From Paracoccaceae bacterium (GTDB taxonomy: Bacteria; Pseudomonadota; Alphaproteobacteria; Rhodobacterales; Rhodobacteraceae), in the NCBI GenBank assembly GCA_965247915.1, contig OZ252048.1, positions 2,859,740-2,923,739 on the forward strand: a DNA stretch of 64,000 nt. Reading direction: 5' to 3'. The notes below the pieces were generated by a model. That model was not told the origin of the DNA, searched no databases, and saw only the letters and a list, made by a program, of their open reading frames with translations. A program made the translations under genes and the position numbers. Of this stretch, positions 3,560 through 27,580 are shown piece after piece; position 1 is the first letter of the stretch, and every line of letters begins with the position of its first letter.

Positions 3560-3600
3560 CGGAAGGTGCCGCGCCGCGCGACCGGCTTCGGCCTTGGGCC

Positions 3601-5612
3601 CTACCAGCTTACCTGTAGGCGCAGCATCACGCCGTGCTCCGCGGCGTCGTCGTTGGCCGGCTCGCGCCGCGCGCCCTCGAAGCTCAGGTCGAACGCAGGC
3701 GCGATCTCGAAGCGAATACCGATCCGGTAACGTCGCGACCCTTCGCCCGCCAGCGAGAACCCGCCATAGGGCGTCAGCAGCCCGCGTCCGCCGAACGCGC
3801 CGAAGCCATAGCCGAGCTCGCTGTCCAGCCGCATCTGCGGGACGTTGTCATTGGCCGCCCCATCGTCGGTCGCCAGTTTGGCGACGTCCTGATCCCACAG
3901 CCGATCCACCCCGCTCGATATCTCGCCCCAGGTCGGGAAGAGGCTGAACGACAGTCCCCGCCCGCCGGCGCCCGGGTCGAGCCGGACCGAGCCGCCGAGG
4001 CCCCATTCCCGGTAATCGCTCTGCCCCGCCAGCACCCGACCGTTGACCTCGATCGTCAGGCCCGCGGCCGGATCCCGATAACGCAAGCTTCCGCCGATCT
4101 CGATGCCGGTGCCGGTGATCCCGTCGCCCCCGTCATGGCGCAGACCCAGCTCCAGGGACGGCGTCAGGGAGGAGCCCGAGGCCAGCGCCTGCTCGTGGCT
4201 GCCCTCCAGCGCCAGCCGCAGGCGGTTGGCGTTCACTGTCTGCTTGTCGATCAGGTCATCGTCGCCCTCGACCTCGACTTGCGCAACCGACGCCTCGCCC
4301 TTGAGCATGAGCGTCGTCCTGCCGCCCTCGATCAGCGACCCGCTCGCGCCCATTGCTGCGGTCTTCAAGCTGGTATCGCTCGTCTGCCGGCCGGCCTGCT
4401 CGTCGTCGATCCCGATCTCGCCCTGGCCGTAGCCCAGCGTCGCCCAGAGACCGAGACCCTGCGGTGAGGTCCAGCCGAGATAGGGATGCACGCTGGTCAT
4501 GCGGCTCTTATAGTCGCCGCTCACCGGCACCGGCCCGGTCGCGGCGGTATAGTCGAATTCACCGACTGAGCGCGACAGCGCGAGCCCGGTCAGGAGATCG
4601 TCGCGCAGACAACCATCGATGCCGATCTGGCCGGTCAGCACCGTGCCGTCCCAGGCAAGGGCGGACTCCGTGCTTTCGAGCGTGTGCCGCTCGCCACGGC
4701 CCCACACCACAGGCCCGCCACCCGTTCTGTCGCCGCTCGCCGTCGCGAGCGGCAGCCGGAAGGACGAGCCCGCCAGTACATCGTCGAGGGTGAGCGTGCC
4801 GTCCTCGAGGGCCTGGGCCTTGGCGTGCAGCGCACCATGGATCCTCGATCCCCCGGCCAGCGTGTAGGCGGCCGCCTGTTTGCCGCACGCCTCGTCCATG
4901 CGCGCACCGATCGCCCGGTTGGTGACATCGGCGATGGTCAGCGCGTGTTTGGAGAGGATCTCGGCGTTGAGTCGCCCGAAGCGCGCCAAAAGCCCCGGCG
5001 TGGCGGTCACGGTGGATGACGCGCTGATGATATCGGAGCCGCTCACGGCGCCGCTTACCCCCAGCACCGTGAAGGTGTATTCGGTGCCGTTGGTCAACCC
5101 GGTAATGGCAGCGGTCGTCTTCGACCCCGATCCGGACTGGACGAACTGGGTCACAGGCGTCGCGCCACCCTGGATTTGGACCGAATAATGGTTGATCTCG
5201 GGGTTCCTGTCCCACTGTAGCGCAACCTGGCTGTCGCCCGGGGTCGCCGCCAAATTGGGCGGCGCGGGCCACAGTGCTATGGCGGTCGTTTCGGCTGCGT
5301 CGCTGACACGAAAGTCGTTCGCCGAACGCAGCTGGAAGGTGTACAGGGTGCCAAATGTCAGGCCGGTGATGACGTAACTGGTGGTGCTCGCGTTGCTACC
5401 GGGGATTGTGGTCCAATCCGGGTTCCACGTTACGCCGTCGTCGTCGGAGACGCGGTATTGGTAGTATTCGAGCCCAGCAAGATCGGCGGGGGGCTCCACC
5501 TCAGCGTTACCGCGGCCCCTTCAGCCGCGTCCGCCGACGCCGGAAAACCGAGCAGCAGCACGGCGGCGGCGAGGACTGCGCCGATGATTGCCAGCCGTGG
5601 AAAAAGTCTCAC
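3601..5612 (-). pseudogene. Autotransporter AT1 (signal peptide, 2-3 FN3 modules, C-terminal beta-domain), split by a frameshift
   Basis: The 632-aa ORF 3601..5499 carries FN3-like modules and a barrel ending GVMLRLQVSW. The signal peptide (VRLFPRLAIIGAVLAAAVLLLGFPASADA, GTG at 5612 after an AGGGGG RBS-like motif) is in another frame and stops at 5430. The frames overlap around a G6 run at 5488..5493. Confidence 0.75.
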
Positions 5613-5897
5613 GGAAACTGTCCCCCTGCACGCGCCCGTTCGATACAACACCGGGCTACTGGCGCTTTCGGTGTCTATAATGTCGTTATTCATGCTCGTC
5701 TGCTTGTGGTCAAGCTCTACTCTTCGCCGGCCGCGGACCTCGCCAGTGGTCCCCGGTCCGTGATCATCATACAGGGAGCACCCTTTCGACAACCCGTCGG
5801 ACCGCCGCTCCTCGTGTCGTACCACCCGGGTCCGGCAATGGGGAGCATTTCGCCGGCCGCGGCAGCGTCCGCCGCGCGACCGGTTTCCGCCTCGGCC

Positions 5898-8800
5898 CTA
5901 CCAGCTTGCCTGCATGCGCAGCATCACGCCGTGCTCCGCGGCGTCGTCGTTGGCCGGCTCGCGCCGCGCGCCCTCGAAGCTCAGGTCGAACGCAGGCGCG
6001 ATCTCGAAGCGAATACCGATCCGGTAACGTCGCGACCCTTCGCCGGCCAGCGAGAACCCGCCATAGGGCGTCAGCAGCCCGTGCCCGCCGAGTGTGCTGA
6101 AGCCATAGCCAAGCTCGCTGTCCAGCCGCATCTGCGGGACGTTGTCATTGGCCGCCCCATCGTCGGTCGCCAGTTCTGCGACGTCCTGATCCCACAACCG
6201 CGCAGTCCCGCTCGTCGCATCGCCGTAAACCAGCGCCATGCTCAACGACAGGCCGTGGCCGCTGGGGCCGGGATCAACCCGGACCAGTCCGCCAACGCCC
6301 CATTCCTCGTATTCGTCCTCATGCGCAAGCAGAACCCGGCCGTGGCCTTCCAGCGTCACCCCGTTCGATGGGTCGAAGTAACGCAAGCTGCCGCCAAGCT
6401 CATACCCGTTCCCGGTCACTCCGTCGCCACCGTCATGGCGAACGCCAACTTCCAGCGCCGGCGTCAGCGATGCGCCCGAGGCCAGCTCATGCGCATGGCT
6501 GCCCTCCAGCGACAGCCGAAGCCGCTGGATATCCGTGGTCAGCGGGTTGATCTGCAGGCCGTTGCCCTCCAGCTCGATCCGCGACAGCGCGCCCTCGCCC
6601 TTGAGCTTCAGCGTTGTCGTGCCGCCCGCGATCAGACCATCGTCGGAGAGCAGCGTGCCGCTCGCGCCCGCCGCCACCATCTTCAGCGTCGTATCGCTCG
6701 ACTGCGGCGCCAGCAGATCGTCGTCGATCTCCACCTCGCCCTGGCCGTAGCCGACCGTCGCCCACATCCCGAGACCCTGCGGTGAGGTCCAGCCGAGATA
6801 GGGATGCACGCTGGTCATGCGGCTCTTATAGTCGCCGCTCACCGTCAAGCCGCCTCCCTGCGCCGTCGAGGTCCGGTCGGTATAGTCGAACGATCCCCGG
6901 GACCACGATACCGACATCCCGGCCAGAACCTTCTCGTTCAGCCGTGTGTCCGCGCCCAGATGAGCGGTCACTATATTGCCTTCCCATTCCACCAGGCTGT
7001 CCGGACGGCCCTTAAGGCTGGTGTAATCGCCGCTGCCCCAGATCGCCAGGCCGCCGAGACCGCCCGGCACATTGTTCCCGTCTTCGGCGGCATGGAGCGG
7101 TAGCACGAAGGAGCGGCCATCCAGCAGCGCCTTCAGGTCGAACGTGCCTTGCTCAAGCGAGCGCTCGTTGGCCTTAAGCAAGCGATAAATAGAGGACTGA
7201 TCGGCCAGGTTGACCGCGCCTGCAGGCGGCACGCCGGACGCCACCGCATCGATGCGCCCGGTGATCGCTGTCAGCGTGCTCGCCACCATCGCCTGCGCCA
7301 CCCGAGGCACGATCTCCTCGTTCACCCGGCCGATCCGCGCCGTCGCCGCGTCCTCCGCGTTGTCGAGGATTGTCCCCGTCGCCGGCGAATTCGAGGCAAG
7401 CGACACGGGTACCGTACTGGTCACATTCGAGAGCCGCACCACGAAGGTCTCTGTCCCCTCGGCCACGGCGTCGCGAATCGTCTGAACCTCAACGGTCTGT
7501 ACGAACGAGCTGGCGGTCTGCTCGAAAATCAGCGTGCCCGACCCGTGCGTGTAGTCGTCCGGTGTCTTCGCGGTGCCGTCTTCCGTCGACCAGTCCACTG
7601 TCACGTTGCTCGCGACGGCACCCGACAGCTTTACCGTGAAACGCGCCGTGCCGCCTTCATCTATCACCCTGTCCGACACGGACAAATTTCGCGCATCCTC
7701 GTCGTCGGTCAGCGTCAGGGTCTGATCGGAAGGCGCCGTGACCCCCTGGGTGTTGGCCGCCGTCGCCGACACCGTCACCGTCTTGTCCGGCGCGTCGACG
7801 CTGTTGTCGACCCCGGTGATGGTCACCACGCCGGTGCTCGTCGTGGCGCCGGCCGCGATCGTCAGCGTGGTGTTGGTGCTCAGCGCGAAGTCGCCGGCCA
7901 CCGCCGGGGAGACCGCCGTCGCCGACACCGTCACCGTGGTCGCCTGGCTCGACGCCCCGCTCAGCGTCGCCGTCACCGTGCTGACCCCGCCGTTCTCGCT
8001 CACCGAGGCCGGGCTCAGCGCCAGCGTCACGCTCGGCGTCGCCTCGTCGTCGGTCAGCGTCAGGGTCTGATCGGAAGGCGCCGTGACCCCCTGGGTGTTG
8101 GCCGCCGTCGCCGACACCGTCACCGTCTTGTCCGGCGCGTCGACGCTGTTGTCGACCCCGGTGATGGTCACCACGCCGGTGCTCGTCGTGGCGTTGGCCG
8201 CGATCGTCAGCGTGGTGTTGGTGCTCAGCGCGAAGTCGCCGGCCACCGCCGGGGAGACCGCCGTCGCCGACACCGTCACCGTGGTCGCCTGGCTCGACGC
8301 CCCGCTCAGCGTCGCCGTCACCGTGCTGACCCCGCCGTTCTCGCTCACCGAGGCCGGGCTCAGCGCCAGCGTCACGCTCGGCGTCGCCTCGTCGTCGGTC
8401 AGCGTCAGGGTCTGATTGGAAGGCGCCGTGACCCCCTGGGTGTTGGCCGCCGTCGCCGACACCGTCACCGTCTTGTCCGGCGCGTCGACGCTGTTGTCGA
8501 CCCCGGTGATGGTCACCACGCCGGTGCTCGTCGTGGCGCCGGCCGCGATCGTCAGCGTGGTGTTGGTGCTCAGCGCAAAGTCGCCGGCCACCGCCGGGGA
8601 GACCGCCGTCGCCGACACCGTCACCGTGGTCGCCTGGCTCGACGCCCCGCTCAGCGTCGCCGTCACCGTGCTGACCCCGCCGTTCTCGCTCACCGAGGCC
8701 GGGCTCAGCGCCAGCGTCACGCTCGGCGTCGCCTCGTCGTCGGTCAGCGTCAGGGTCTGATCGGAAGGCGCCGTGACCCCCTGGGTGTTGGCCGCCGTCG

Positions 8801-11800
8801 CCGACACCGTCACCGTCTTGTCCGGCGCGTCGACGCTGTTGTCGACCCCGGTGATGGTCACCACGCCGGTGCTCGTCGTGGCGCCGGCCGCGAAGCTCAG
8901 CGTGGTGTTGGTGCTCAGCGCAAAGTCGCCGGCCACCGCCGGGGAGACCGCCGTCGCCGACACCGTCACCGTGGTCGCCTGGCTCGACGCCCCGCTCAGC
9001 GTCGCCGTCACCGTGCTGACCCCGCCGTTCTCGCTCACCGAGGCCGGGCTCAGCGCCAGCGTCACGCTCGGCGTCGCCTCGTCGTCGGTCAGCGTCAGGG
9101 TCTGATCGGAAGGCGCCGTGACCCCCTGGGTGTTGGCCGCCGTCGCCGACACCGTCACCGACTTGTCCGGCGCGTCGACGCTGTTGTCGACCCCGGTGAT
9201 GGTCACCACGCCGGTGCTCGTCGTGGCGTTGGCCGCGATCGTCAGCGTGGTGTTGGTGCTCAGCGCGAAGTCGCCGGCCACCGCCGGGGAGACCGCCGTC
9301 GCCGACACCGTCACCGTGGTCGCCTGGCTCGACGCCCCGCTCAGCGTCGCCGTCACCGTGCTGACCCCGCCGTTCTCGCTCACCGAGGCCGGGCTCAGCG
9401 CCAGCGTCACGCTCGGCGTCGCCTCGTCGTCGGTCAGCGTCAGGGTCTGATCGGAAGGCGCCGTGACCCCCTGGGTGTTGGCCGCCGTCGCCGACACCGT
9501 CACCGACTTGTCCGGCGCGTCGACGCTGTTGTCGACCCCGGTGATGGTCACCACGCCGGTGCTCGTCGTGGCGCCGGCCGCGATCGTCAGCGTGGTGTTG
9601 GTGCTCAGCGCGAAGTCGCCGGCCACCGCCGGCGCCACCGCCGTCGCCGACACCGTCACCGTGGTCGCCTGGCTCGACGCCCCGCTCAGCGTCGCCGTCA
9701 CCGTGCTGACCCCGCCGTTCTCGCTCACCGAGGCCGGGCTCAGCGCCAGCGTCACGCTCGGCGTCGCCTCGTCGTCGGTCAGCGTCAGGGTCTGATCGGA
9801 AGGCGCCGTGACCCCCTGGGTGTTGGCCGCCGTCGCCGACACCGTCACCGTCTTGTCCGGCGCGTCGACGCTGTTGTCGACCCCGGTGATGGTCACCACG
9901 CCGGTGCTCGTCGTGGCGCCGGCCGCGAAGCTCAGCGTGGTGTTGGTGCTCAGCGCAGAGTCGCCGGCCACCGCCGGGGAGACCGCCGTCGCCGACACCG
10001 TCACCGTGGTCGCCTGGCTCGACGCCCCGCTCAGCGTCGCCGTCACCGTGCTGACCCCGCCGTTCTCGCTCACCGAGGCCGGGCTCAGCGCCAGCGTCAC
10101 GCTCGGCGTCGCCTCGTCGTCGGTCAGCGTCAGGGTCTGATCGGAAGGCGCCGTGACCCCCTGGGTGTTGGCCGCCGTCGCCGACACCGTCACCGACTTG
10201 TCCGGCGCGTCGACGCTGTTGTCGACCCCGGTGATGGTCACCACGCCGGTGCTCGTCGTGGCGTTGGCCGCGATCGTCAGCGTGGTGTTGGTGCTCAGCG
10301 CGAAGTCGCCGGCCACCGCCGGGGAGACCGCCGTCGCCGACACCGTCACCGTGGTCGCCTGGCTCGACGCCCCGCTCAGCGTCGCCGTCACCGTGCTGAC
10401 CCCGCCGTTCTCGCTCACCGAGGCCGGGCTCAGCGCCAGCGTCACGCTCGGCGTCGCCTCGTCGTCGGTCAGCGTCAGGGTCTGATCGGAAGGCGCCGTG
10501 ACCCCCTGGGTGTTGGCCGCCGTCGCCGACACCGTCACCGACTTGTCCGGCGCGTCGACGCTGTTGTCGACCCCGGTGATGGTCACCACGCCGGTGCTCG
10601 TCGTGGCGCCGGCCGCGATCGTCAGCGTGGTGTTGGTGCTCAGCGCGAAGTCGCCGGCCACCGCCGGCGCCACCGCCGTCGCCGACACCGTCACCGTGGT
10701 CGCCTGGCTCGACGCCCCGCTCAGCGTCGCCGTCACCGTGCTGACCCCGCCGTTCTCGCTCACCGAGGCCGGGCTCAGCGCCAGCGTCACGCTCGGCGTC
10801 GCCTCGTCGTCGGTCAGCGTCAGGGTCTGATTGGAAGGCGCCGTGACCCCCTGGGTGTTGGCCGCCGTCGCCGACACCGTCACCGTCTTGTCCGGCGCGT
10901 CGACGCTGTTGTCGACCCCGGTGATGGTCACCACGCCGGTGCTCGTCGTGGCGCCGGCCGCGATCGTCAGCGTGGTGTTGGTGCTCAGCGCGAAGTCGCC
11001 GGCCACCGCCGGGGAGACCGCCGTCGCCGACACCGTCACCGTGGTCGCCTGGCTCGACGCCCCGCTCAGCGTCGCCGTCACCGTGCTGACCCCGCCGTTC
11101 TCGCTCACCGAGGCCGGGCTCAGCGCCAGCGTCACGCTCGGCGTCGCCTCGTCGTCGGTCAGCGTCAGGGTCTGATCGGAAGGCGCCGTGACCCCCTGGG
11201 TGTTGGCCGCCGTCGCCGACACCGTCACCGTCTTGTCCGGCGCGTCGACGCTGTTGTCGACCCCGGTGATGGTCACCACGCCGGTGCTCGTCGTGGCGCC
11301 GGCCGCGATCGTCAGCGTGGTGTTGGTGCTCAGCGCAAAGTCGCCGGCCACCGCCGGGGAGACCGCCGTCGCCGACACCGTCACCGTGGTCGCCTGGCTC
11401 GACGCCCCGCTCAGCGTCGCCGTCACCGTGCTGACCCCGCCGTTCTCGCTCACCGAGGCCGGGCTCAGCGCCAGCGTCACGCTCGGCGTCGCCTCGTCGT
11501 CGGTCAGCGTCAGGGTCTGATCGGAAGGCGCCGTGACCCCCTGGGTGTTGGCCGCCGTCGCCGACACCGTCACCGTCTTGTCCGGCGCGTCGACGCTGTT
11601 GTCGACCCCGGTGATGGTCACCACGCCGGTGCTCGTCGTGGCGCCGGCCGCGATCGTCAGCGTGGTGTTGGTGCTCAGCGCAAAGTCGCCGGCCACCGCC
11701 GGGGAGACCGCCGTCGCCGACACCGTCACCGTGGTCGCCTGGCTCGACGCCCCGCTCAGCGTCGCCGTCACCGTGCTGACCCCGCCGTTCTCGCTCACCG

Positions 11801-13748
11801 AGGCCGGGCTCAGCGCCAGCGTCACGCTCGGCGTCGCCTCGTCGTCGGTCAGCGTCAGGGTCTGATCGGAAGGCGCCGTGACCCCCTGGGTGTTGGCCGC
11901 CGTCGCCGACACCGTCACCGTCTTGTCCGGCGCGTCGACGCTGTTGTCGACCCCGGTGATGGTCACCACGCCGGTGCTCGTCGTGGCGCCGGCCGCGATC
12001 GTCAGCGTGGTGTTGGTGCTCAGCGCGAAGTCGCCGGCCACCGCCGGGGAGACCGCCGTCGCCGACACCGTCACCGTGGTCGCCTGGCTCGACGCCCCGC
12101 TCAGCGTCGCCGTCACCGTGCTGACCCCGCCGTTCTCGCTCACCGAGGCCGGGCTCAGCGCCAGCGTCACGCTCGGCGTCGCCTCGTCGTCGGTCAGCGT
12201 CAGGGTCTGATTGGAAGGCGCCGTGACCCCCTGGGTGTTGGCCGCCGTCGCCGACACCGTCACCGTCTTGTCCGGCGCGTCGACGCTGTTGTCGACCCCG
12301 GTGATGGTCACCACGCCGGTGCTCGTCGTGGCGCCGGCCGCGATCGTCAGCGTGGTGTTGGTGCTCAGCGCAAAGTCGCCGGCCACCGCCGGGGAGACCG
12401 CCGTCGCCGACACCGTCACCGTGGTCGCCTGGCTCGACGCCCCGCTCAGCGTCGCCGTCACCGTGCTGACCCCGCCGTTCTCGCTCACCGAGGCCGGGCT
12501 CAGCGCCAGCGTCACGCTCGGCGTCGCCTCGTCGTCGGTCAGCGTCAGGGTCTGATTGGAAGGCGCCGTGACCCCCTGGGTGTTGGCCGCCGTCGCCGAC
12601 ACCGTCACCGTCTTGTCCGGCGCGTCGACGCTGTTGTCGACCCCGGTGATGGTCACCACGCCGGTGCTCGTCGTGGCGCCGGCCGCGATCGTCAGCGTGG
12701 TGTTGGTGCTCAGCGCAAAGTCGCCGGCCACCGCCGGGGAGACCGCCGTCGCCGACACCGTCACCGTGGTCGCCTGGCTCGACGCCCCGCTCAGCGTCGC
12801 CGTCACCGTGCTGACCCCGCCGTTCTCGCTCACCGAGGCCGGGCTCAGCGCCAGCGTCACGCTCGGCGTCGCCTCGTCGTCGGTCAGCGTCAGGGTCTGA
12901 TTGGAAGGCGCCGTGACCCCTTGGGTGTTGGCCGCCGTCGCCGACACCGTCACCGTCTTGTCCGGCGCGTCGACGCTGTTGTCGACCCCGGTGATGGTCA
13001 CCACGCCGGTGCTCGTCGTGGCGCCGGCCGCGATCGTCAGCGTGGTGTTGGTGCTCAGCGCAAAGTCGCCGGCCACCGCCGGGGAGACCGCCGTCGCCGA
13101 CACCGTCACCGTGGTCGCCTGGCTCGACGCCCCGCTCAGCGTCGCCGTCACCGTGCTGACCCCGCCGTTCTCGCTCACCGAGGCCGGGCTCAGCGCCAGC
13201 GTCACGCTCGGCGTCGCCTCGTCGTCGGTCAGCGTCAGGGTCTGATTGGAAGGCGCCGTGACCCCCGTGCCGCCGGTCACCGTCCCCGACACCGTCACCG
13301 TCTTGTCCGGCGCGTCGACGCTGTTGTCGACCCCGGTGATGGTCACCACGCCGGTGCTCGCCGTGGCGTTGGCCGCGATCGTCAGCGTGGTGTTGGTGCT
13401 CAGCGCGAAGTCGCCGGCCACCGCCGGGGCCACCGCCGTCGCCCCCACCGTCACCGTAAACGCCGTAGTCGACGCGGGGGCCACGGTTGCCGTCACCGTG
13501 CTGACCCCGCCGTTCTCGCTCACCGAGGCCGGGCTCAGCGCCAGCGTCACCGTCTGCGCGCTGGCGCTGGTTGGCAGAGCCAGAAACGCGGAGGCCGCTA
13601 TCAGAAACGCCGCGATTGCGCCGGGCGCTGCCTTGGTGATAGTATTGCTGAGTCGAGAAACGCCGCCCCGGCTTAGGGATACGCGATGTGCATTTGCGCG
13701 GCGGAGCGCGCGCCATGCCTTGATTTTTGAGAGAATCACAAACGTCAC
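5898..13748 (-). CDS. Giant autotransporter AT2 with 17 Calx-beta-like repeats, one canonical Calx-beta domain and a C-terminal beta-domain
   Basis: 2616-aa ORF. Features in order: signal-like AAFLIAASAFLALPTSASA; 17 repeats of 115 aa; a Calx-beta motif (DWSTEDGTAKTPDDY...ETFVVRL); a barrel ending GVMLRMQASW. The true start is uncertain and may be internal. Confidence 0.85.
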   Translation of the reverse strand: MTFVILSKIKAWRALRRANAHRVSLSRGGVSRLSNTITKAAPGAIAAFLIAASAFLALPTSASAQTVTLALSPASVSENGGVSTVTATVAPASTTAFTVTVGATAVAPAVAGDFALSTNTTLTIAANATASTGVVTITGVDNSVDAPDKTVTVSGTVTGGTGVTAPSNQTLTLTDDEATPSVTLALSPASVSENGGVSTVTATLSGASSQATTVTVSATAVSPAVAGDFALSTNTTLTIAAGATTSTGVVTITGVDNSVDAPDKTVTVSATAANTQGVTAPSNQTLTLTDDEATPSVTLALSPASVSENGGVSTVTATLSGASSQATTVTVSATAVSPAVAGDFALSTNTTLTIAAGATTSTGVVTITGVDNSVDAPDKTVTVSATAANTQGVTAPSNQTLTLTDDEATPSVTLALSPASVSENGGVSTVTATLSGASSQATTVTVSATAVSPAVAGDFALSTNTTLTIAAGATTSTGVVTITGVDNSVDAPDKTVTVSATAANTQGVTAPSNQTLTLTDDEATPSVTLALSPASVSENGGVSTVTATLSGASSQATTVTVSATAVSPAVAGDFALSTNTTLTIAAGATTSTGVVTITGVDNSVDAPDKTVTVSATAANTQGVTAPSDQTLTLTDDEATPSVTLALSPASVSENGGVSTVTATLSGASSQATTVTVSATAVSPAVAGDFALSTNTTLTIAAGATTSTGVVTITGVDNSVDAPDKTVTVSATAANTQGVTAPSDQTLTLTDDEATPSVTLALSPASVSENGGVSTVTATLSGASSQATTVTVSATAVSPAVAGDFALSTNTTLTIAAGATTSTGVVTITGVDNSVDAPDKTVTVSATAANTQGVTAPSDQTLTLTDDEATPSVTLALSPASVSENGGVSTVTATLSGASSQATTVTVSATAVSPAVAGDFALSTNTTLTIAAGATTSTGVVTITGVDNSVDAPDKTVTVSATAANTQGVTAPSNQTLTLTDDEATPSVTLALSPASVSENGGVSTVTATLSGASSQATTVTVSATAVAPAVAGDFALSTNTTLTIAAGATTSTGVVTITGVDNSVDAPDKSVTVSATAANTQGVTAPSDQTLTLTDDEATPSVTLALSPASVSENGGVSTVTATLSGASSQATTVTVSATAVSPAVAGDFALSTNTTLTIAANATTSTGVVTITGVDNSVDAPDKSVTVSATAANTQGVTAPSDQTLTLTDDEATPSVTLALSPASVSENGGVSTVTATLSGASSQATTVTVSATAVSPAVAGDSALSTNTTLSFAAGATTSTGVVTITGVDNSVDAPDKTVTVSATAANTQGVTAPSDQTLTLTDDEATPSVTLALSPASVSENGGVSTVTATLSGASSQATTVTVSATAVAPAVAGDFALSTNTTLTIAAGATTSTGVVTITGVDNSVDAPDKSVTVSATAANTQGVTAPSDQTLTLTDDEATPSVTLALSPASVSENGGVSTVTATLSGASSQATTVTVSATAVSPAVAGDFALSTNTTLTIAANATTSTGVVTITGVDNSVDAPDKSVTVSATAANTQGVTAPSDQTLTLTDDEATPSVTLALSPASVSENGGVSTVTATLSGASSQATTVTVSATAVSPAVAGDFALSTNTTLSFAAGATTSTGVVTITGVDNSVDAPDKTVTVSATAANTQGVTAPSDQTLTLTDDEATPSVTLALSPASVSENGGVSTVTATLSGASSQATTVTVSATAVSPAVAGDFALSTNTTLTIAAGATTSTGVVTITGVDNSVDAPDKTVTVSATAANTQGVTAPSNQTLTLTDDEATPSVTLALSPASVSENGGVSTVTATLSGASSQATTVTVSATAVSPAVAGDFALSTNTTLTIAANATTSTGVVTITGVDNSVDAPDKTVTVSATAANTQGVTAPSDQTLTLTDDEATPSVTLALSPASVSENGGVSTVTATLSGASSQATTVTVSATAVSPAVAGDFALSTNTTLTIAAGATTSTGVVTITGVDNSVDAPDKTVTVSATAANTQGVTAPSDQTLTLTDDEDARNLSVSDRVIDEGGTARFTVKLSGAVASNVTVDWSTEDGTAKTPDDYTHGSGTLIFEQTASSFVQTVEVQTIRDAVAEGTETFVVRLSNVTSTVPVSLASNSPATGTILDNAEDAATARIGRVNEEIVPRVAQAMVASTLTAITGRIDAVASGVPPAGAVNLADQSSIYRLLKANERSLEQGTFDLKALLDGRSFVLPLHAAEDGNNVPGGLGGLAIWGSGDYTSLKGRPDSLVEWEGNIVTAHLGADTRLNEKVLAGMSVSWSRGSFDYTDRTSTAQGGGLTVSGDYKSRMTSVHPYLGWTSPQGLGMWATVGYGQGEVEIDDDLLAPQSSDTTLKMVAAGASGTLLSDDGLIAGGTTTLKLKGEGALSRIELEGNGLQINPLTTDIQRLRLSLEGSHAHELASGASLTPALEVGVRHDGGDGVTGNGYELGGSLRYFDPSNGVTLEGHGRVLLAHEDEYEEWGVGGLVRVDPGPSGHGLSLSMALVYGDATSGTARLWDQDVAELATDDGAANDNVPQMRLDSELGYGFSTLGGHGLLTPYGGFSLAGEGSRRYRIGIRFEIAPAFDLSFEGARREPANDDAAEHGVMLRMQASW
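7697..13550. repeat. Tandem array of 17 near-identical 345-bp units, in frame inside AT2
   Basis: Complementary-strand ORFs recur at exact 345-bp spacing (7738, 8083, 8428 ... 13258). Units differ by only a few substitutions. The promoter-proximal unit (13258-13550) is the most divergent. Confidence 0.95.
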
Positions 13749-14138
13749 AGCACGATCCTCAATCCAACAAGTCTACTCCAGACACCGGGAATTACTACAT
13801 CCCCGCCACCACGCTCAGCCACAAAAGGCGTGTATACCAGAACAATATGCCAGAGCAATGGTGAATGCTAGGGTTAGGGTTGCGGGGCCACCACCTCGCT
13901 CGCACACGATCAACGATCCGGTGAAGCATTGCAGGTCCCTCATGCCCCTTGGCTTTCGCCACCGGTGAGCCAATGCGGAAGAACCCGGGAACGACCACGG
14001 GGCGGGGCCATGTTCGTTTTTCTCCCGCGGGTCCCCGGCAGTTTCTGCGCCTCACCTAGGCCGCCAGCATGTACACGTAAGCGCGTTTGCTGGGATGGGT
14101 CGACGCGAAGCGCGAGGCAAGTGGAAAATCGATGGTGA

Positions 14139-14330
14139 GGCAGGCGCGGCCTACTGACGCCCTATAGCGGTCTCTCGCTCGCCGGCGAAGGCACACAACG
14201 CTACCGGATCGGCGGTCGCTTCGAGATCGGGTCGGCACTTCAGCTCAGCCTCGAAGGCGAGCGCCGCGAGCCGGCCACCGACGCTGCTGCGGACCATGAC
14301 GTCATGCTGCGGGGACAGTTGCGATTCTGA
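14139..14330 (+). pseudogene. Orphan remnant of an autotransporter beta-domain C-terminus
   Basis: My + strand translation is GRRGLLTPYSGLSLAGEGTQRYRIGGRFEIGSALQLSLEGERREPATDAAADHDVMLRGQLRF*. This aligns with GGRGLLTPYGGFSLAGEGSRRYRIGIRFEIAPAFDLSFEGARREPANDDAAEHGVMLRLQVSW* of AT1. A TGA lies immediately upstream at 14136. Confidence 0.6.
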
Positions 14331-14502
14331 CGACTCTAGCATGCCGGCCCTTGACGGGTTGCTCCGCTGTTCCTCAGCGGCGATTCATTCATCGATGCGA
14401 CGTCGGCGTCCGGCTCGCGTGCCGGACCGCTGTTGAGGACAGACGAATTGCGCTGCGACCCTGACCGGGCTCGCAGCGATGTACAGTCGGATGAGGACGA
14501 CA

Positions 14503-14724
14503 ATGGACGAACGCATGAAGACTCATGGCGACCTCGGGTGGTGCGAGCTGATGACCGACGAGGTCGAGACGGCGCGCGAGTTCTATACCGGCGTGATCGG
14601 ATGGAGCAGCGAAGTTATGGACGTCGGGAAAGGCCCCTGCACGATGTTCAAGATCGGTGATCGTCCGGTCGCCGGCCTGATGGCCGAACCACCGGCGGCC
14701 GCCGGGTACCGCCCCCGGGTCCGA
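14503..14724 (+). pseudogene. VOC/glyoxalase-fold protein, C-terminally truncated
   Basis: HGDLGWCELMTDEVETAREFYTGVIGWSS...FKIGDRPVAGLM matches the VOC-family N-terminal half from memory. Similarity is lost near 14720 and the ORF runs on into unrelated sequence. Confidence 0.4.
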
Positions 14725-15576: not shown

Positions 15577-16677
15577 GGCGTTGTTGCACGGATCGGGTGT
15601 CAAGTGTTAACACAGGCTTTTGCCACGACCACGGATATGCTTAATGCCGCATAAATTCAACACCTCCCGCCGGCACAAGTTTGCGAAGAAGAAATATCGG
15701 GTGACGAACTGGTGCGGGTATAATGAAAGCCTGCGAAATCGTGGTGATTTGACGGTCTGGATCACAGGGGATGCGCGAAAGCACTGGGCTGCACCACGGC
15801 GCAGGTCGCGCGGCGGCCAGCCGCGATACTCGGATCTGGCGATCACGATGTGCCTGACGCTGGGCATGGTTTACAGGTTGCCGCTGCGCCAGACCCAAGG
15901 GCTGATACGCAGCATATCAAAGCTGATGCTGCTGGAAATTTCAGTTCCTGATTTCTCGACCCTGTCGCGCCGAGGGCGTGGTCTGAGCCTTCCGGCAAGG
16001 CCCAAAATCAAAATAACAGATCCGGTCCACTTGGCCATCGACAGTACGGGTTTGAAGGTTTTCGATGAGGGTGAGTGGCTGCAAAGCAAGTATAATGTAA
16101 AGGCCAAACGCAAACGGTGGCGTAAACTTCACCTTGGTCTGAACCTTGTGACTGGCGATATCGTTTGTTCGGATTTAACGCTGGATGACGTTGGCGATCC
16201 AACAGTGCTGCCTGATCTATTAAATCAGATTGGCACTCCGGTCTCCCGGTTTATAGCGGACGGTGCCTACGACGGCGCACCGACCAGTGACTTGCTTAAG
16301 GCACGATTTGGCGAGGCGGTTGAAATCATTATTCCTCCACCGAAGAACGCCATTCCAAGCCCGCAATCCAAGTGTTTTCCCTCACTTCGAGACCGACATA
16401 TTGTTAAAATTCAAACTCATGGCCGCATGGCCTGGCAATCTGGCAGTGGCTACAATCAGCGCAGTAGAATTGAGACACAGATGGGGCGCTGGAAGGCTAT
16501 TATCGGGCCAAAACTGAAAGCCCGCTGTTTCGAAAATCAGCAAACGGAGGCCAAAATCGGCGTCGCCATTCTCAACAAAATGACCGAACTCGGCCGACCC
16601 GTGTTCAAACAAATCTCATAGCCTGTATCACGGGTAAGGGCGGCTTGCGACTATTGTCTGATCCATGCAACAACGCC
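15577..16677 (+). mobile_element. IS5-family (IS903-group-like) element, copy A, 1101 bp
   Basis: Terminal inverted repeats are GGCGTTGTTGCACGGATC and GATCCATGCAACAACGCC, reminiscent of the IS903 IR GGCTTTGTTGAATAAATC. It is one of four copies. I saw no 9-bp target duplication. Confidence 0.85.
15620..16621 (+). CDS. IS5-family DDE transposase (copy A)
   Basis: 333-aa ORF, identical to copy B apart from one residue (E vs V) in the ORF track. The likely true start is MPHKFNTSRRHKF a few codons in. Confidence 0.85.
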   Translation: MPRPRICLMPHKFNTSRRHKFAKKKYRVTNWCGYNESLRNRGDLTVWITGDARKHWAAPRRRSRGGQPRYSDLAITMCLTLGMVYRLPLRQTQGLIRSISKLMLLEISVPDFSTLSRRGRGLSLPARPKIKITDPVHLAIDSTGLKVFDEGEWLQSKYNVKAKRKRWRKLHLGLNLVTGDIVCSDLTLDDVGDPTVLPDLLNQIGTPVSRFIADGAYDGAPTSDLLKARFGEAVEIIIPPPKNAIPSPQSKCFPSLRDRHIVKIQTHGRMAWQSGSGYNQRSRIETQMGRWKAIIGPKLKARCFENQQTEAKIGVAILNKMTELGRPVFKQIS

Positions 16678-16703
16678 CCGCGCGACCGGTTTCCGCCTCG
16701 GCC

Positions 16704-19700
16704 CTACCAGCTTGCCTGCATGCGCAGCATCACGCCGTGCTCCGCTGCCGCATCGTTGGCCGGCTCACGGCGCGCGCCCTCGAAGCTCAGGTCGAACGCA
16801 GGCGCGATCTCGAAGCGAATACCGATCCGGTAACGTCGCGACCCTTCGCCCGCCAGCGAGAACCCGCCATAGGGCGTCAGCAGCCCGTGCCCGCCGAGTG
16901 TGCTGAAGCCATAGCCAAGCTCGCTGTCCAGCCGCATCTGCGGGACGTTGTCATTGGCCGCCCCATCGTCGGTCGCCAGTTCTGCGACGTCCTGATCCCA
17001 CAACCGCGCAGTCCCGCTCGTCGCATCGCCGTAAACCAGCGCCATGCTCAACGACAGGCCGTGGCCGCTGGGGCCGGGATCAACCCGGACCAGTCCGCCA
17101 ACGCCCCATTCCTCGTATTCGTCCTCATGCGCAAGCAGAACCCGGCCGTGGCCTTCCAGCGTCACCCCGTTCGATGGGTCGAAGTAACGCAAGCTGCCGC
17201 CAAGCTCATACCCGTTCCCGGTCACTCCGTCGCCACCGTCATGGCGAACGCCAACTTCCAGCGCCGGCGTCAGCGATGCGCCCGAGGCCAGCTCATGCGC
17301 ATGGCTGCCCTCCAGCGACAGCCGAAGCCGCCAGGCGTTCACCGTCTGCTGCGCGATCAGGCCGTCGTCGCCCTCGACCTCGACCTGCGCCCACGAGGCC
17401 TCGCTCCGGAGCTCGAGCGCCATCGTGCCGCCCGCGATCGGCGATTCATCGGTCATCAAGGGACCGCTCGCGCCCATTGCCGCGGTCTTCAAGCTGGTAT
17501 CGCTCGTCTGCCGGCCGGCCTGCTCGTCGTCGATCTCCACCTCGCCCTGGCCGTAGCCGACCGTCGCCCACATCCCGAGACCCTGCGGTGAGGTCCAGCC
17601 GAGATAGGGATGCACGCTGGTCATGCGGCTCTTATAGTCGCCGCTCACCGGCACCGGCCCGGTCGCGGCGGTATAGTCGAATTCACCGACTGAGCGCGAC
17701 AGCGCGAGCCCGGTCAGGAGATCGTCGCGCAGACAACCATCGATGCCGATCTGGCCGGTCAGCACCGTGCCGTCCCAGGCAAGGGCGGACTCCGTGCTTT
17801 CGAGCGTGTGCCGCTCGCCACGGCCCCACACCACAGGCCCGCCACCCGTTCTGTCGCCGCTCGCCGCCGCGAGCGGCAGCCGGAAGGACGAGCCCGCCAG
17901 TACATCGTCGAGGGTGAGCGTGCCGTCCTCGAGGGCCTGGGCCTTGGCGTGCAGCGCACCATGGATCGTCGATCCCCCGGCCAGCGTGTAGGCGGCCGCC
18001 CGCTTGCCGCACGGATCGTCCATGCGCGCGCCGATCGCCCGGTTGGTGACATCGGCGATGGTCAGCGCGTGTTTGGAGAGGATCTCGGCGTTCAGGCGCC
18101 CGAAGCGCGCCTGGACCACGGCGCCTTCAGCGTCGACGATGGTCAGCGTGGCCGCGGCCGGCGCGCCTTTCGCCACGTTCGCGGGCAGCGTCCCGAATCT
18201 CAGCGCCACCCTCACGTCATGGAAATTGTCGTCTTGTTGGGCCTCTTCCGTGGCCTCGATGGTGAAGCTCCTGGTGGTGTCGCCCATCTCCTCGAATTTG
18301 AGCGTGACGGTCCCGGTCGCAGGATCCAAGACATCCGGATCCGTAACCGTAACCGTATAGTCGGCCGCCACGGTCCGGCCCCGCGGGGTCACCGTGATCG
18401 GGATCTCCAGCGCGTCGGCCGCTTGCTTGCTCAGCGTCACCGTCACCCTTACCGGATCGCCGCCCTCTTCGACCGCATAGGCCGCGGCGCCGAAGCGCAC
18501 CGAATACACCCGCACCACTTTAATGGCCATGGCGTACGCCACCACGCTGTCGCTCTCGCCGTCACTGACCTTGAACTCGAACGTCGCGAAAGGATCGCCG
18601 TGCGCGTTCTCCGGCGGAGTGTAGAGGAGGTTGCCCGCTTCGAGGTCGGCCGGCGTCACCTGCCGGGGTAGGGTGTCGCTGGTGATGGCCGCGCCGTTAA
18701 GCGACAGCGTCCCCCGGTCATTCCCCTCGTCATCCACGGGCGGCGAGGCGATCTTCACGTGGTGCAGCGTGTCCTCTTCGTCGTCTGAATAGGCGAAGTC
18801 TTTCATCGTAAAGCGGTACGGTTCGTTGTCGTACGTGGACACCTCTTTGCTGGAACCCGTGGGGGGGTTGTTGAACGGCGTGGCGTTCGCGGCGGATGCG
18901 TCGCCCTCGCCGGCATCGTTCATCGCGCGCACTGCCAACGTGTACTCGGTGCCGTTTTTCAGGCCGGGAACGGTGTATCCGGTGGCATTGGTCTGGCCAT
19001 GGGCGCTGCTGGGGATGTTGGTGAAGCTATCGTCACCGTTGATGCTGACCTGGTAGCCGGTGATGGTGCTGTCGTTCGGATCGGCCCACTCAAGCTCGAC
19101 CTGGCGGTAACCCGGTCCGACCGAGGAAATCTCCGGGGCGGCCGGCGGCGCAATCGGCCTGGCGGTCACGGTGGATGCCGGGCCGTTACCGGGATCGTTT
19201 ACCGCGCGCACCGCCAACGTGTACTCGGTGCCGTTGGTCAGGCCGGTCACGGTGTATCCGGTGGGGGGCGCATTGGGGTCGGTTACGGGGATGTTCGCCC
19301 AGTCAGTGTAGGTATTGTCGTCGCTGTTCCTCACCTTCGAGCGGACCTGGTACTTGGTGATCGATCTGTCGCTCGGATCGTTCCACGCAAGCACCACCTG
19401 GCCGTCGCCCGGCGTGGCCGAGGAAATCGTCGGGGCGTCCGGCACCGCAATCGGCGTGGCCCCCACGCTGGAGGCTTCGCCGTCACCGGAAGCGTTCACC
19501 GCGCGCAGCTCAAACCCGTACGCGCTGCCGTTAGTCAGGCCGGTCACGGTGTAGGTGGTGGTGGTCGCACTGCTGCCGACGATGTCGCTCCAGTCGCCGA
19601 AATCGGCGCCGCTCACCCTCTGCCGGACCTGGTACTTGGTGATGCTGCTGTCGTTCGGATCGTCCCAGGTCAGCACAGCCTGCCCGTTAGCCGCCATGGC

Positions 19701-25053: not shown

Positions 25054-26154
25054 GGCGTTGTTGCATGGATCAGACAATAGTCGCAAGCCGCCCTTACCCG
25101 TGATACAGGCTATGAGATTTGTTTGAACACGGGTCGGCCGAGTTCGGTCATTTTGTTGAGAATGGCGACGCCGATTTTGGCCTCCGTTTGCTGATTTTCG
25201 AAACAGCGGGCTTTCAGTTTTGGCCCGATAATAGCCTTCCAGCGCCCCATCTGTGTCTCAATTCTACTGCGCTGATTGTAGCCACTGCCAGATTGCCAGG
25301 CCATGCGGCCATGAGTTTGAATTTTAACAATATGTCGGTCTCGAAGTGAGGGAAAACACTTGGATTGCGGGCTTGGAATGGCGTTCTTCGGTGGAGGAAT
25401 AATGATTACAACCGCCTCGCCAAATCGTGCCTTAAGCAAGTCACTGGTCGGTGCGCCGTCGTAGGCACCGTCCGCTATAAACCGGGAGACCGGAGTGCCA
25501 ATCTGATTTAATAGATCAGGCAGCACTGTTGGATCGCCAACGTCATCCAGCGTTAAATCCGAACAAACGATATCGCCAGTCACAAGGTTCAGACCAAGGT
25601 GAAGTTTACGCCACCGTTTGCGTTTGGCCTTTACATTATACTTGCTTTGCAGCCACTCACCCTCATCGAAAACCTTCAAACCCGTACTGTCGATGGCCAA
25701 GTGGACCGGATCTGTTATTTTGATTTTGGGCCTTGCCGGAAGGCTCAGACCACGCCCTCGGCGCGACAGGGTCGAGAAATCAGGAACTGAAATTTCCAGC
25801 AGCATCAGCTTTGATATGCTGCGTATCAGCCCTTGGGTCTGGCGCAGCGGCAACCTGTAAACCATGCCCAGCGTCAGGCACATCGTGATCGCCAGATCCG
25901 AGTATCGCGGCTGGCCGCCGCGCGACCTGCGCCGTGGTGCAGCCCAGTGCTTTCGCGCATCCCCTGTGATCCAGACCGTCAAATCACCACGATTTCGCAG
26001 GCTTTCATTATACCCGCACCAGTTCGTCACCCGATATTTCTTCTTCGCAAACTTGTGCCGGCGGGAGGTGTTGAATTTATGCGGCATTAAGCATATCCGT
26101 GGTCGTGGCAAAAGCCTGTGTTAACACTTGACACCCGATCCGAGCAACAACGCC
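25054..26154 (-). mobile_element. IS5-family (IS903-group-like) element, copy B, 1101 bp, inverted relative to copy A
   Basis: Same length and termini as copy A, with one IR mismatch (GCTCGG vs GCACGG). The flanks do not form a target duplication. Confidence 0.85.
25110..26111 (-). CDS. IS5-family DDE transposase (copy B)
   Basis: 333-aa ORF, one residue different from copy A. Confidence 0.85.
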   Translation of the reverse strand: MPRPRICLMPHKFNTSRRHKFAKKKYRVTNWCGYNESLRNRGDLTVWITGDARKHWAAPRRRSRGGQPRYSDLAITMCLTLGMVYRLPLRQTQGLIRSISKLMLLEISVPDFSTLSRRGRGLSLPARPKIKITDPVHLAIDSTGLKVFDEGEWLQSKYNVKAKRKRWRKLHLGLNLVTGDIVCSDLTLDDVGDPTVLPDLLNQIGTPVSRFIADGAYDGAPTSDLLKARFGEAVVIIIPPPKNAIPSPQSKCFPSLRDRHIVKIQTHGRMAWQSGSGYNQRSRIETQMGRWKAIIGPKLKARCFENQQTEAKIGVAILNKMTELGRPVFKQIS

Positions 26155-26713: not shown

Positions 26714-27580
26714 TTATTCGGCGGCGTGAGCAATGGGCGGTGGCGCGGAGCCTTCAGATAGCTCAAGCGTCGCTGCCCATTGCGGTTTATGGAAAGGCCT
26801 GTTTGCGGCAAATTCTTCCGGGGTTTGATAGTTCAGCGAAGAGTGGGGCCGGTTTTGATTGTAATCGATCCGCCAGTCCTCGATGATCCTTTCTGCCTCG
26901 GCCAGCGAGGTGAACCAGTTCAAGTTCAGGCATTCTTCGCGAAACCGGCCGTTGAAACTTTCGATGTAGGCGTTCTGGGTCGGCTTGCCCGGGTCGATGA
27001 AGTAGAGCTGCACGCCGTGATCATCTGCCCAGCCATCAAGCGCGCGGCCTCGTAGTTCAGGCCCATTGTCAACGGTCAGAACATCCGGGTACCCCCGCTC
27101 ACGAGCCACCCGTTCCAGCATTTCCACCACGCGGGAGCCGGGGATCGACAGGGCCACATCAATCGCCGGACATTCCCGTGTGCAGTCGTCTTTCAGATTG
27201 ACGGTGCGGAACTTCCTGCCGTTGGCGAGCGCATCCATGGTGAAGTCCAGGCTCCACCGCTGGTTGGCGGCGATCGGGCACCAGGCGCCTTCGCGCACGC
27301 CCTTGGGGATTTTCTTGCGATTGTGGCGGCGCAGGGTCAGGCGCTCCTCTCGGTAAAGTCGCTCCACCACTTTCACGTTCACCTTGAAACCCTCCTGGCC
27401 AAGCTTGGCATGCAACATGCGATAGCCATAGCGTCGGTGTTTGCCGGAAAGCGTGACCAGCCGTTCCCGTATCCTCGCATGGCGATCCGGCCTTCCTCTG
27501 TATTCATTACTCGATCTGGAAAACCCAATCAGCCCACAGGCCCGCCGAGTTGAAAACTGATAGTCACGGCAAAGAACCAT
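26714..27580 (-). CDS. IS3-family transposase OrfB (integrase core)
   Basis: 288-aa ORF with an rve-type core (...LTVDNGPELRG...FIDPGKPTQNAYIESFNGRFREECLN...). Confidence 0.85.
   Translation of the reverse strand: MVLCRDYQFSTRRACGLIGFSRSSNEYRGRPDRHARIRERLVTLSGKHRRYGYRMLHAKLGQEGFKVNVKVVERLYREERLTLRRHNRKKIPKGVREGAWCPIAANQRWSLDFTMDALANGRKFRTVNLKDDCTRECPAIDVALSIPGSRVVEMLERVARERGYPDVLTVDNGPELRGRALDGWADDHGVQLYFIDPGKPTQNAYIESFNGRFREECLNLNWFTSLAEAERIIEDWRIDYNQNRPHSSLNYQTPEEFAANRPFHKPQWAATLELSEGSAPPPIAHAAE

Follow-up and report, generated by a model that had tools for sequence, protein, structure and literature searches.

Periscope Proteins carry a stalk of highly identical folded tandem domains, the number of which is proposed to shift by homologous recombination and can be counted only with long reads (PMC8201768, PMC9704523). 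Known examples include SasG/Aap, Rib/alpha-C, Sgo_0707 with its SHIRT domains and inverse autotransporters with 2-47 BIg repeats, and the Gram-negative cases in these papers are inverse (type Ve) autotransporters, whose stalks consist of BIg domains, and ShdA, a classical autotransporter in which the PATR repeats are beta-helical (PMC8201768, PMC9704523). Here we describe AT2, a complete gene at 5898-13748 (minus strand) of a 64,000-nt stretch of the genome of a Paracoccaceae bacterium (assembly GCA_965247915.1, contig OZ252048.1, positions 2,859,740 to 2,923,739), hereafter the window. The genome consists of one contig of 3,928,576 bp (C1) and is 100% complete; the window corresponds to C1:2859740-2923739, and positions given without a contig are those of the window. 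AT2 encodes a protein of 2616 amino acids made up, as read from its translation and Pfam matches, of a signal region, 17 repeat units of 345 bp, a canonical Calx-beta domain, a helix and an outer-membrane barrel. Our analysis makes it probable that the repeat array encodes the extracellular stalk of an outer-membrane surface protein of the autotransporter type and that its units have been homogenised by recombination.

The Periscope Protein is the closest known concept for AT2, as both are single chains with a tandem array of individually folding domains at very high DNA identity (98.9% across 16 units in AT2). They differ in several respects. The anchor of AT2 is a C-terminal autotransporter-type barrel in the classical orientation, neither a sortase/LPXTG anchor nor an inverse (type Ve) one, its stalk domain has the Calx-beta fold, and it lacks a separate distal adhesive domain; in addition, repeat-number variation among strains is described for the Periscope Proteins, whereas AT2 is known here from one genome. 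The term "Calx" is absent from the main text of PMC8201768 and from that of a survey of fibrillar adhesins (PMC8286594), and the Calx-beta fold is unmentioned in the main text of PMC9704523. AT2 would be a clean example of a homogenised stalk following the "Periscope" logic, built from a Calx-beta-fold module and placed on an autotransporter-type anchor.

Tandem Repeats Finder returned one dominant tandem array at 7697-13550 (period 345, 17.0 copies, 98% matches, 0% indels, score 11230), in frame within the AT2 open reading frame (ORF), as had been proposed in an earlier reading made from the DNA letters alone (the sequence-only reading). Read in the coding frame (minus strand), the 17 units extend from 13562 down to 7698, each being exactly 345 nt, or 115 amino acids, in length. 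The earlier description of seventeen near-identical units is accurate for 16 of them, with units 2-17 (7698-13217, minus strand) being 0-5 of 345 nt away from their own consensus at a mean pairwise identity of 98.93%; it is not accurate for unit 1 (13218-13562, minus strand), which is 40 of 345 nt away and would form the distal tip of the mature protein. The divergence of unit 1 is attributed to its position at the array edge, as homogenisation is expected to act on interior units. The sequence-only reading also rightly anticipated long false ORFs in other frames: an antisense frame of 2175 amino acids (7149-13676, plus strand; 33% Arg) and a frame of 2019 amino acids in another register of the coding strand (7657-13716, minus strand; Gly 25%, Arg 18%, Asp 14%) both cross the array, where the repeat is stop-poor with a GC content of 72-73%. 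We rejected these alternative frames as genes because their products are Arg- and Gly/Arg-rich low-complexity sequence, which marks them as artefacts of the GC-rich repeat, and users of this genome should expect gene callers to yield them.

A single unit scored 22.5 bits against the Pfam family LapA (PF20579, E-value 1.6e-4) and 16.7 bits against Calx-beta (PF03160, E-value 7.8e-3), both below the cut-off of 27. AlphaFold2 (AF2), supplied with a 31-sequence alignment of diverged units taken from five giant-protein relatives, modeled one unit as an all-beta sandwich with high confidence (pLDDT 95.1, pTM 0.86). When this model was compared with the PDB using Foldseek, the CBD1/CBD2 domains of NCX1/CALX made up the top 11 matches (11 of the 15 best), with TM-scores of 0.71-0.75 and a probability of 1.00. 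Additionally, alignment of the unit profile with the canonical Calx-beta domain of AT2 itself using hhalign gave a probability of 70% (E 4e-5). The sequence search of the PDB with the unit profile gave nothing significant, the best match being the C-terminal domain of a protein-asparaginase (E 0.0017). The name "Calx-beta-like module" used in the sequence-only reading is thus right at the level of the fold, with the sequence score remaining below the Pfam gathering threshold. The canonical Calx-beta domain, which lies at amino acids 2028-2130 (7359-7667, minus strand) and matches PF03160 at 105.7 bits against the cut-off of 27 (E 1.9e-30), does not resemble the repeat units at the nucleotide level.

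In comparison with the Calx-beta domains of NCX1 and Drosophila CALX (PF03160; PDB 2DPK, 3GIN, 3EAD), the unit has in common the beta-sandwich fold and an acidic tail (...DDE), and differs in a sequence identity of only 12-19%, in a Pfam score below the gathering threshold and in its predicted location, being bacterial and extracellular where the NCX/CALX domains reside in a cytoplasmic loop of the exchanger. In the alignment of the unit family, E16, D51, N80, D113 and D114 are invariant or nearly so, and the conserved acidic positions among them (E16, D51, D113 and D114) are compatible with Ca2+ binding.

The AT2 start codon, a GTG at 13748, is preceded at a distance of 7 nt by a Shine-Dalgarno-like GAGGA (13756-13760, minus strand; direct reading of the sequence). 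The N-terminal 64 amino acids (13557-13748, minus strand), judged by eye from the translation, comprise a long basic leader and a hydrophobic core (AAPGAIAAFLIAASAFLALP) and include ASA followed by Q, which we interpret as a putative Sec-type signal with an extended N-region (a basic leader of 40 amino acids). Translation, Pfam and unit mapping revealed no other N-terminal domain. A simple scan found neither a sigma-70-like promoter nor an intrinsic terminator at AT2, a result that is uninformative given that the promoter rules of the organism may differ.

The C-terminal 482 amino acids (5898-7346, minus strand) begin with a long alpha-helix and continue into an outer-membrane beta-barrel, the last residues of which are ...LRMQASW, an assignment based on PF03797, AF2 and Foldseek. 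Scanned alone, this region matched PF03797 (Autotransporter) with a score of 40.1 bits (E 4.8e-10), above the cut-off of 26; the family was not listed in the scan of the whole protein at E<=0.01. The AF2 model, built on a 12-sequence alignment (pLDDT 74.7), has a helix of 36 residues at positions 2-37 and then approximately 18 beta-strands, forming a large barrel domain of ~380 amino acids after the helix and linker. No good solved match to this barrel model was found by Foldseek in the PDB (TMq <= 0.43). The matches include the 12-strand autotransporter barrels BrkA, EstA, NalP and AIDA-I as well as larger barrels, with BrkA, the best solved autotransporter barrel, aligning over 265 columns only (TMt 0.61). 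As there is no close solved structure and both 12-strand and larger barrels match, we term the anchor only "autotransporter-type". AT2 resembles the type Va autotransporters (PF03797; BrkA, EstA, NalP, AIDA-I) in its order of putative N-terminal signal, passenger and C-terminal beta-domain, in the long helix modeled ahead of the barrel, in a PF03797 score above the cut-off and in the presence of solved autotransporter barrels among its fold matches; it differs in having a passenger that is a chain of beta-sandwich modules rather than a beta-helix and a barrel modeled with ~18 strands rather than 12. Together, the PF03797 barrel and the signal-like N-terminus predict that AT2 is displayed at the cell surface.

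Two further groups of giant proteins invite comparison. AT2 is similar to the LapA/RTX adhesins in having a long run of near-identical, Ig-like extender domains of the Ca2+ type, and PF20579 is the best Pfam match of its unit. Such runs can be very long, with region II of MpIBP containing ~120 identical repeats of 104 amino acids. We rejected the assignment of AT2 to the LapA-type adhesins of the type I secretion system, as its C-terminus is a barrel and it has neither RTX Pfam matches nor a type I C-terminal signal; the outer-membrane barrel instead implies export by a type V-like route. In sponge symbionts, giant eukaryote-like proteins composed of repeated Ig, cadherin or LRR-type modules with autotransporter beta-domains have been described (PMC6474228, Rubin-Blum et al. 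2019). These are like AT2 in being giant ORFs of repeated modules that end in an autotransporter beta-domain, and unlike it in that near-identical DNA repeats and Calx-beta stalks are not described there.

We propose that, once AT2 has been exported by the Sec pathway, its C-terminal helix and barrel would insert in the outer membrane and display a rod-shaped passenger of 17 Calx-beta-fold beta-sandwich modules and one canonical Calx-beta domain. Because a separate tip domain is lacking in AT2, the role of interaction surface or of spacer would fall to the modules, the acidic junctions of which (...TDDE) probably bind Ca2+ that stiffens the chain, and AT2 may be adhesive. The near-identity of units 2-17 would arise from homologous recombination between units, through unequal crossing-over of one to several units together with short-tract gene conversion, from which unit 1, having no partner on one side, would escape. 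Under this mechanism the stalk would, as in the Periscope Proteins, change in length in steps of 345 bp, equal to 115 amino acids and, by analogy with other Ig-like domains, very roughly 4 nm per module.

Examination of the rest of the genome revealed paralogues of AT2 outside the window and with them an apparent homogenisation that spans two loci, both of which are new here. Locus B, a whole-gene paralogue at C1:1210676-1229806 (plus strand), lies 1.65 Mb from the window gene (locus A), on the other strand, and carries a 15.7-kb array of 46 units of the 345-bp repeat (C1:1211004-1226663). The two loci are 99.3% identical over an 835-bp upstream segment that was co-duplicated with the gene (13879-14713, minus strand), 97.6% identical in the start region and 96.8% identical in unit 1, and both also possess the Calx-beta domain and the barrel, together with a downstream segment of 1.35 kb (4552-5897, minus strand; 99.1%), which is the 5' part of the neighboring gene AT1. 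That A and B are a single locus assembled twice was rejected, as their outer flanks differ and their common flanks are 0.7-3% apart. Copy C (C1:1968504-1970131, plus strand) is 5'-truncated, retains only the barrel and the last part of the Calx-beta domain, with 98.6% identity to window positions 7395-5768, and is preceded by an unrelated low-complexity open frame. The three copies thus hold 17 (A), 46 (B) and 0 (C) units, which makes the length variation predicted for AT2 in the sequence-only reading plausible. The process that homogenised the units, or else a very recent segmental duplication, would tie AT2 to the 46-unit paralogue and the truncated third copy.

Within the window array, units 9-11 (9768-10802, minus strand) and units 12-14 (8733-9767, minus strand) have matching ordered variant patterns, constituting a higher-order duplication of 1035 bp; the only differences between these two three-unit blocks distinguish unit 11 from unit 14 and lie at two neighboring sites, 155 (variant in unit 11 alone) and 156. 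Locus B likewise contains multi-unit duplications (B17-18 = B23-24 and B04-05 ~ B20-21), as well as three internal 339-nt copies of a unit-1-like variant. The window array holds 11 informative variant sites, and in the four-gamete test 3 of the 55 informative site pairs were incompatible among its 16 units alone, rising to 31 of 105 pairs, at sites 24-184 nt apart, when locus B was included. The 51 "homogeneous" units of A and B represent 22 haplotypes, in which the variants are combined in shuffled fashion; five haplotypes are common to both loci, and mean unit identity is essentially the same within A (98.93%), within B (98.77%) and between A and B (98.83%). Taken together, the duplication of units 9-11 and 12-14, the shuffled variants with all four gametes and the diverged edge unit indicate that the identity of the window array results from repeated recombination between units rather than from one duplication burst. 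The sequence-only reading had offered recent expansion or ongoing concerted evolution as the explanation for this identity, and the 1035-bp duplication, the four-gamete results and the haplotypes found at both loci support and refine it. Since identity within loci equals identity between them, this genome would, given its sequencing reads, be well suited to measuring how often adhesin repeats undergo gene conversion within and between loci.

The 46-unit array also bears on how far the assembly can be trusted. Locus B contains ~15 indels (-1, -2, -4, -3, +1, +1, -1, -43, -14, -3, -1, -5, -133, +4 and +11), all of which fall in C1:1217950-1221200, a 3.3-kb segment at the center of the array, 5.5-7 kb away from its two edges; no frame-breaking indels occur in the remaining 12 kb of the array or in the 1.8-kb 3' region. 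Were the indels uniform over the 17.7-kb gene, the chance of such clustering would be roughly (3.25/17.7)^14, or ~5e-11. Given that this clustering is unlike uniform decay and that reads in the center would be beyond the reach of anchors in the unique flanks, we somewhat favor an assembly defect over real local decay. The explanation that the 17 copies of the window gene and/or their identity are likewise partly an artefact of assembly or polishing, the true units being different in number or more diverse, must be considered. Arrays in which 345-bp units are 99% identical are classically prone to collapse or expansion during assembly, the indels of the B array in the same genome sit where flank-anchored reads would end, and a C6/C7 homopolymer difference between the duplicated 5' copies of AT1 hints at long-read indel noise. 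The window array, in contrast, is only 5.9 kb in length, perfectly periodic, free of indels and in frame between unique flanks, and it has kept 11 informative sites and a three-unit super-repeat that a collapsed consensus would blur; furthermore, the single 3.93-Mb contig, 100% complete, implies long reads, which normally span 6 kb. We consequently regard this explanation as unlikely for AT2. The assembly hazard raised in the sequence-only reading was a fair warning, seen in the central indel cluster of the 15.7-kb paralogue array and not in the clean 5.9-kb array of the window. The count of 17 is internally consistent and should be treated by users of the genome as provisional, and the 46-unit paralogue as probably mis-assembled or decayed at its center.

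It could also be argued that the array formed in a single very recent burst, followed by whole-gene duplication to B, with no ongoing concerted evolution and no functional variation in length. The divergence of the A-B flanks (0.7-3%) is indeed similar to that of the units (~1.1%), and strain-level variation has not been observed. However, a burst leaves unexplained the 31 of 105 incompatible pairs, which need recombination or recurrent mutation, and the multi-unit duplications present in both arrays (A9-11 = A12-14 and those of B), and the almost three-fold difference in copy number (17 versus 46) means that the number of units has changed since A and B separated. We consider such a burst distinctly improbable.

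A more elaborate possibility, to which we give little credence, is that the three copies form a recombinational variation system in which A is expressed and B, cut off from its upstream region by an insertion sequence (IS)-like element and broken in frame, acts as a silent archive that exchanges unit cassettes and whole blocks with A by gene conversion. This would tune the length and surface of the stalk, which, should the organism live in symbiosis with a sponge, could engage a Calx-beta-rich host matrix such as the sponge aggregation factor. A 2.3-kb IS-like insertion with transposase-like ORFs lies 130 bp upstream of the B start, a P4-type integrase gene (C1:1205164-1206393) is located 5 kb upstream of B and an IS3-type orfB downstream of it. 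Finally, that AT2, like its paralogues, is a relic that is decaying or silent among the many IS elements of the region, its repeats neutral satellite-like DNA encoding no working stalk, is very improbable in spite of a neighborhood rich in transposases (IS1595, DDE_Tnp_1, IS3-type rve), the frame-broken copy B with the insertion ahead of its start, the 5' truncation of copy C, unit polymorphisms that are mostly non-synonymous and the empty promoter and terminator scan, as the 7851-nt frame is open, has an intact start context and encodes a signal-like N-terminus, all 17 units in frame, the Calx-beta domain and the barrel, length changes among the kept units are all multiples of 3 and the module family is structurally conserved over >1700 proteins.

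Several observations weigh against the reading of the array as a recombination-homogenised stalk on an autotransporter-type anchor. The barrel is modeled, at moderate confidence, with ~18 strands as opposed to the canonical 12, and the secretion mechanism of AT2 may differ from that of classical type Va proteins. There is no distinct distal adhesive domain, with unit 1 beginning at amino acid 63, directly after the signal region. Of the 18 polymorphic codons in the units, 14 are amino-acid-changing, so that purifying selection on individual units is not visible over this short time; these numbers are too small for a claim of diversifying selection. In addition, equal identity between and within loci is also expected if the gene was duplicated very recently, after its homogenisation, and polishing with multi-mapped reads could have homogenised some units artificially. 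With regard to distribution, a search of the AT2 C-terminal region against 5.8 billion proteins yielded no orthologue above 70% identity (best 67%), neither a scan of JGI metagenome proteins nor an exact search with a 39-mer taken from the unit gave a match, and the sole genome of the same genus has neither the repeat unit nor the barrel.

The domain family of the AT2 module is very large in uncultured bacteria. Searching units 1-2 against the same 5.8 billion proteins identified at least 1753 giant proteins (1.4-4.6 thousand amino acids) with units at 50-70% identity, most of which have precomputed PF20579/PF03160 matches among LRR, cadherin, FN3 and other modules. Several proteins of this family (P0003, P0041, P0075 and P0012) likewise end in barrels and have homogenised arrays; at the P0003 locus a repeat of 351 bp is present in 22.8 copies, and the array of P0041 is similar. 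A genome of the same order contains, at G025:C4:1805113-1838226, an open frame of 13,207 amino acids with dozens of units of this family, 37-43% identical to the AT2 unit, spaced exactly 345 bp apart and with recurring identical scores, a much larger homogenised array.

An exact-protein look-up of AT2 returned no record, and a GTDB genome scan for close orthologues gave matches of at most 60%. In that scan, relatives of the AT2 barrel (38-60% identical) occurred in metagenome-assembled genomes (MAGs) labeled Alphaproteobacteria, Rhodospirillales, Nitrospira and Gammaproteobacteria, and one of them belongs to a Methylococcales bacterium that is a symbiont of the sponge Iophon. The passengers of these relatives are FN3-like repeats with 71-88% identity and are uninformative about the AT2 array. 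Two FN3-passenger proteins from other MAGs, P0162 and P0159, are ~59% identical to the AT2 barrel overall and, judged by eye, ~90% identical over the last ~100 amino acids (...RRYRIGIRFEIAPAFDLSFEGARREPAN..HGVMLRMQASW), which suggests mosaic exchange of barrel segments across genomes.

Within the window, the barrels of the neighboring FN3-type autotransporters AT3 (16678-17653) and AT1 (3572-4529) are 92% and 81% identical in DNA to the AT2-type barrel, values that fit patchwise exchange among paralogous barrels. Just upstream of AT2, on the opposite strand, is a remnant of 60 amino acids (14139-14318, plus strand) that is 70% identical to the last barrel strands, with equivalents at C1:1207962-1208141, upstream of paralogue B, and at C1:1137470-1137649. 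AT1 is split by a C6/G6 homopolymer at 5488-5493, which is C7 in the copy beside B (C1:~1228855), a difference that reflects either phase-variable slippage or a long-read homopolymer error; in addition, 12 nt of the signal region (TCGGCGCAGTCC) are missing from the copy beside B. The three autotransporter genes are surrounded by dense transposase genes (IS1595-like, DDE_Tnp_1 and IS3/rve), located at 700-1638, 15620-16621, 25110-26111, 26714-27580, 34969-35835 and 38290-39366, several of which form near-identical pairs.

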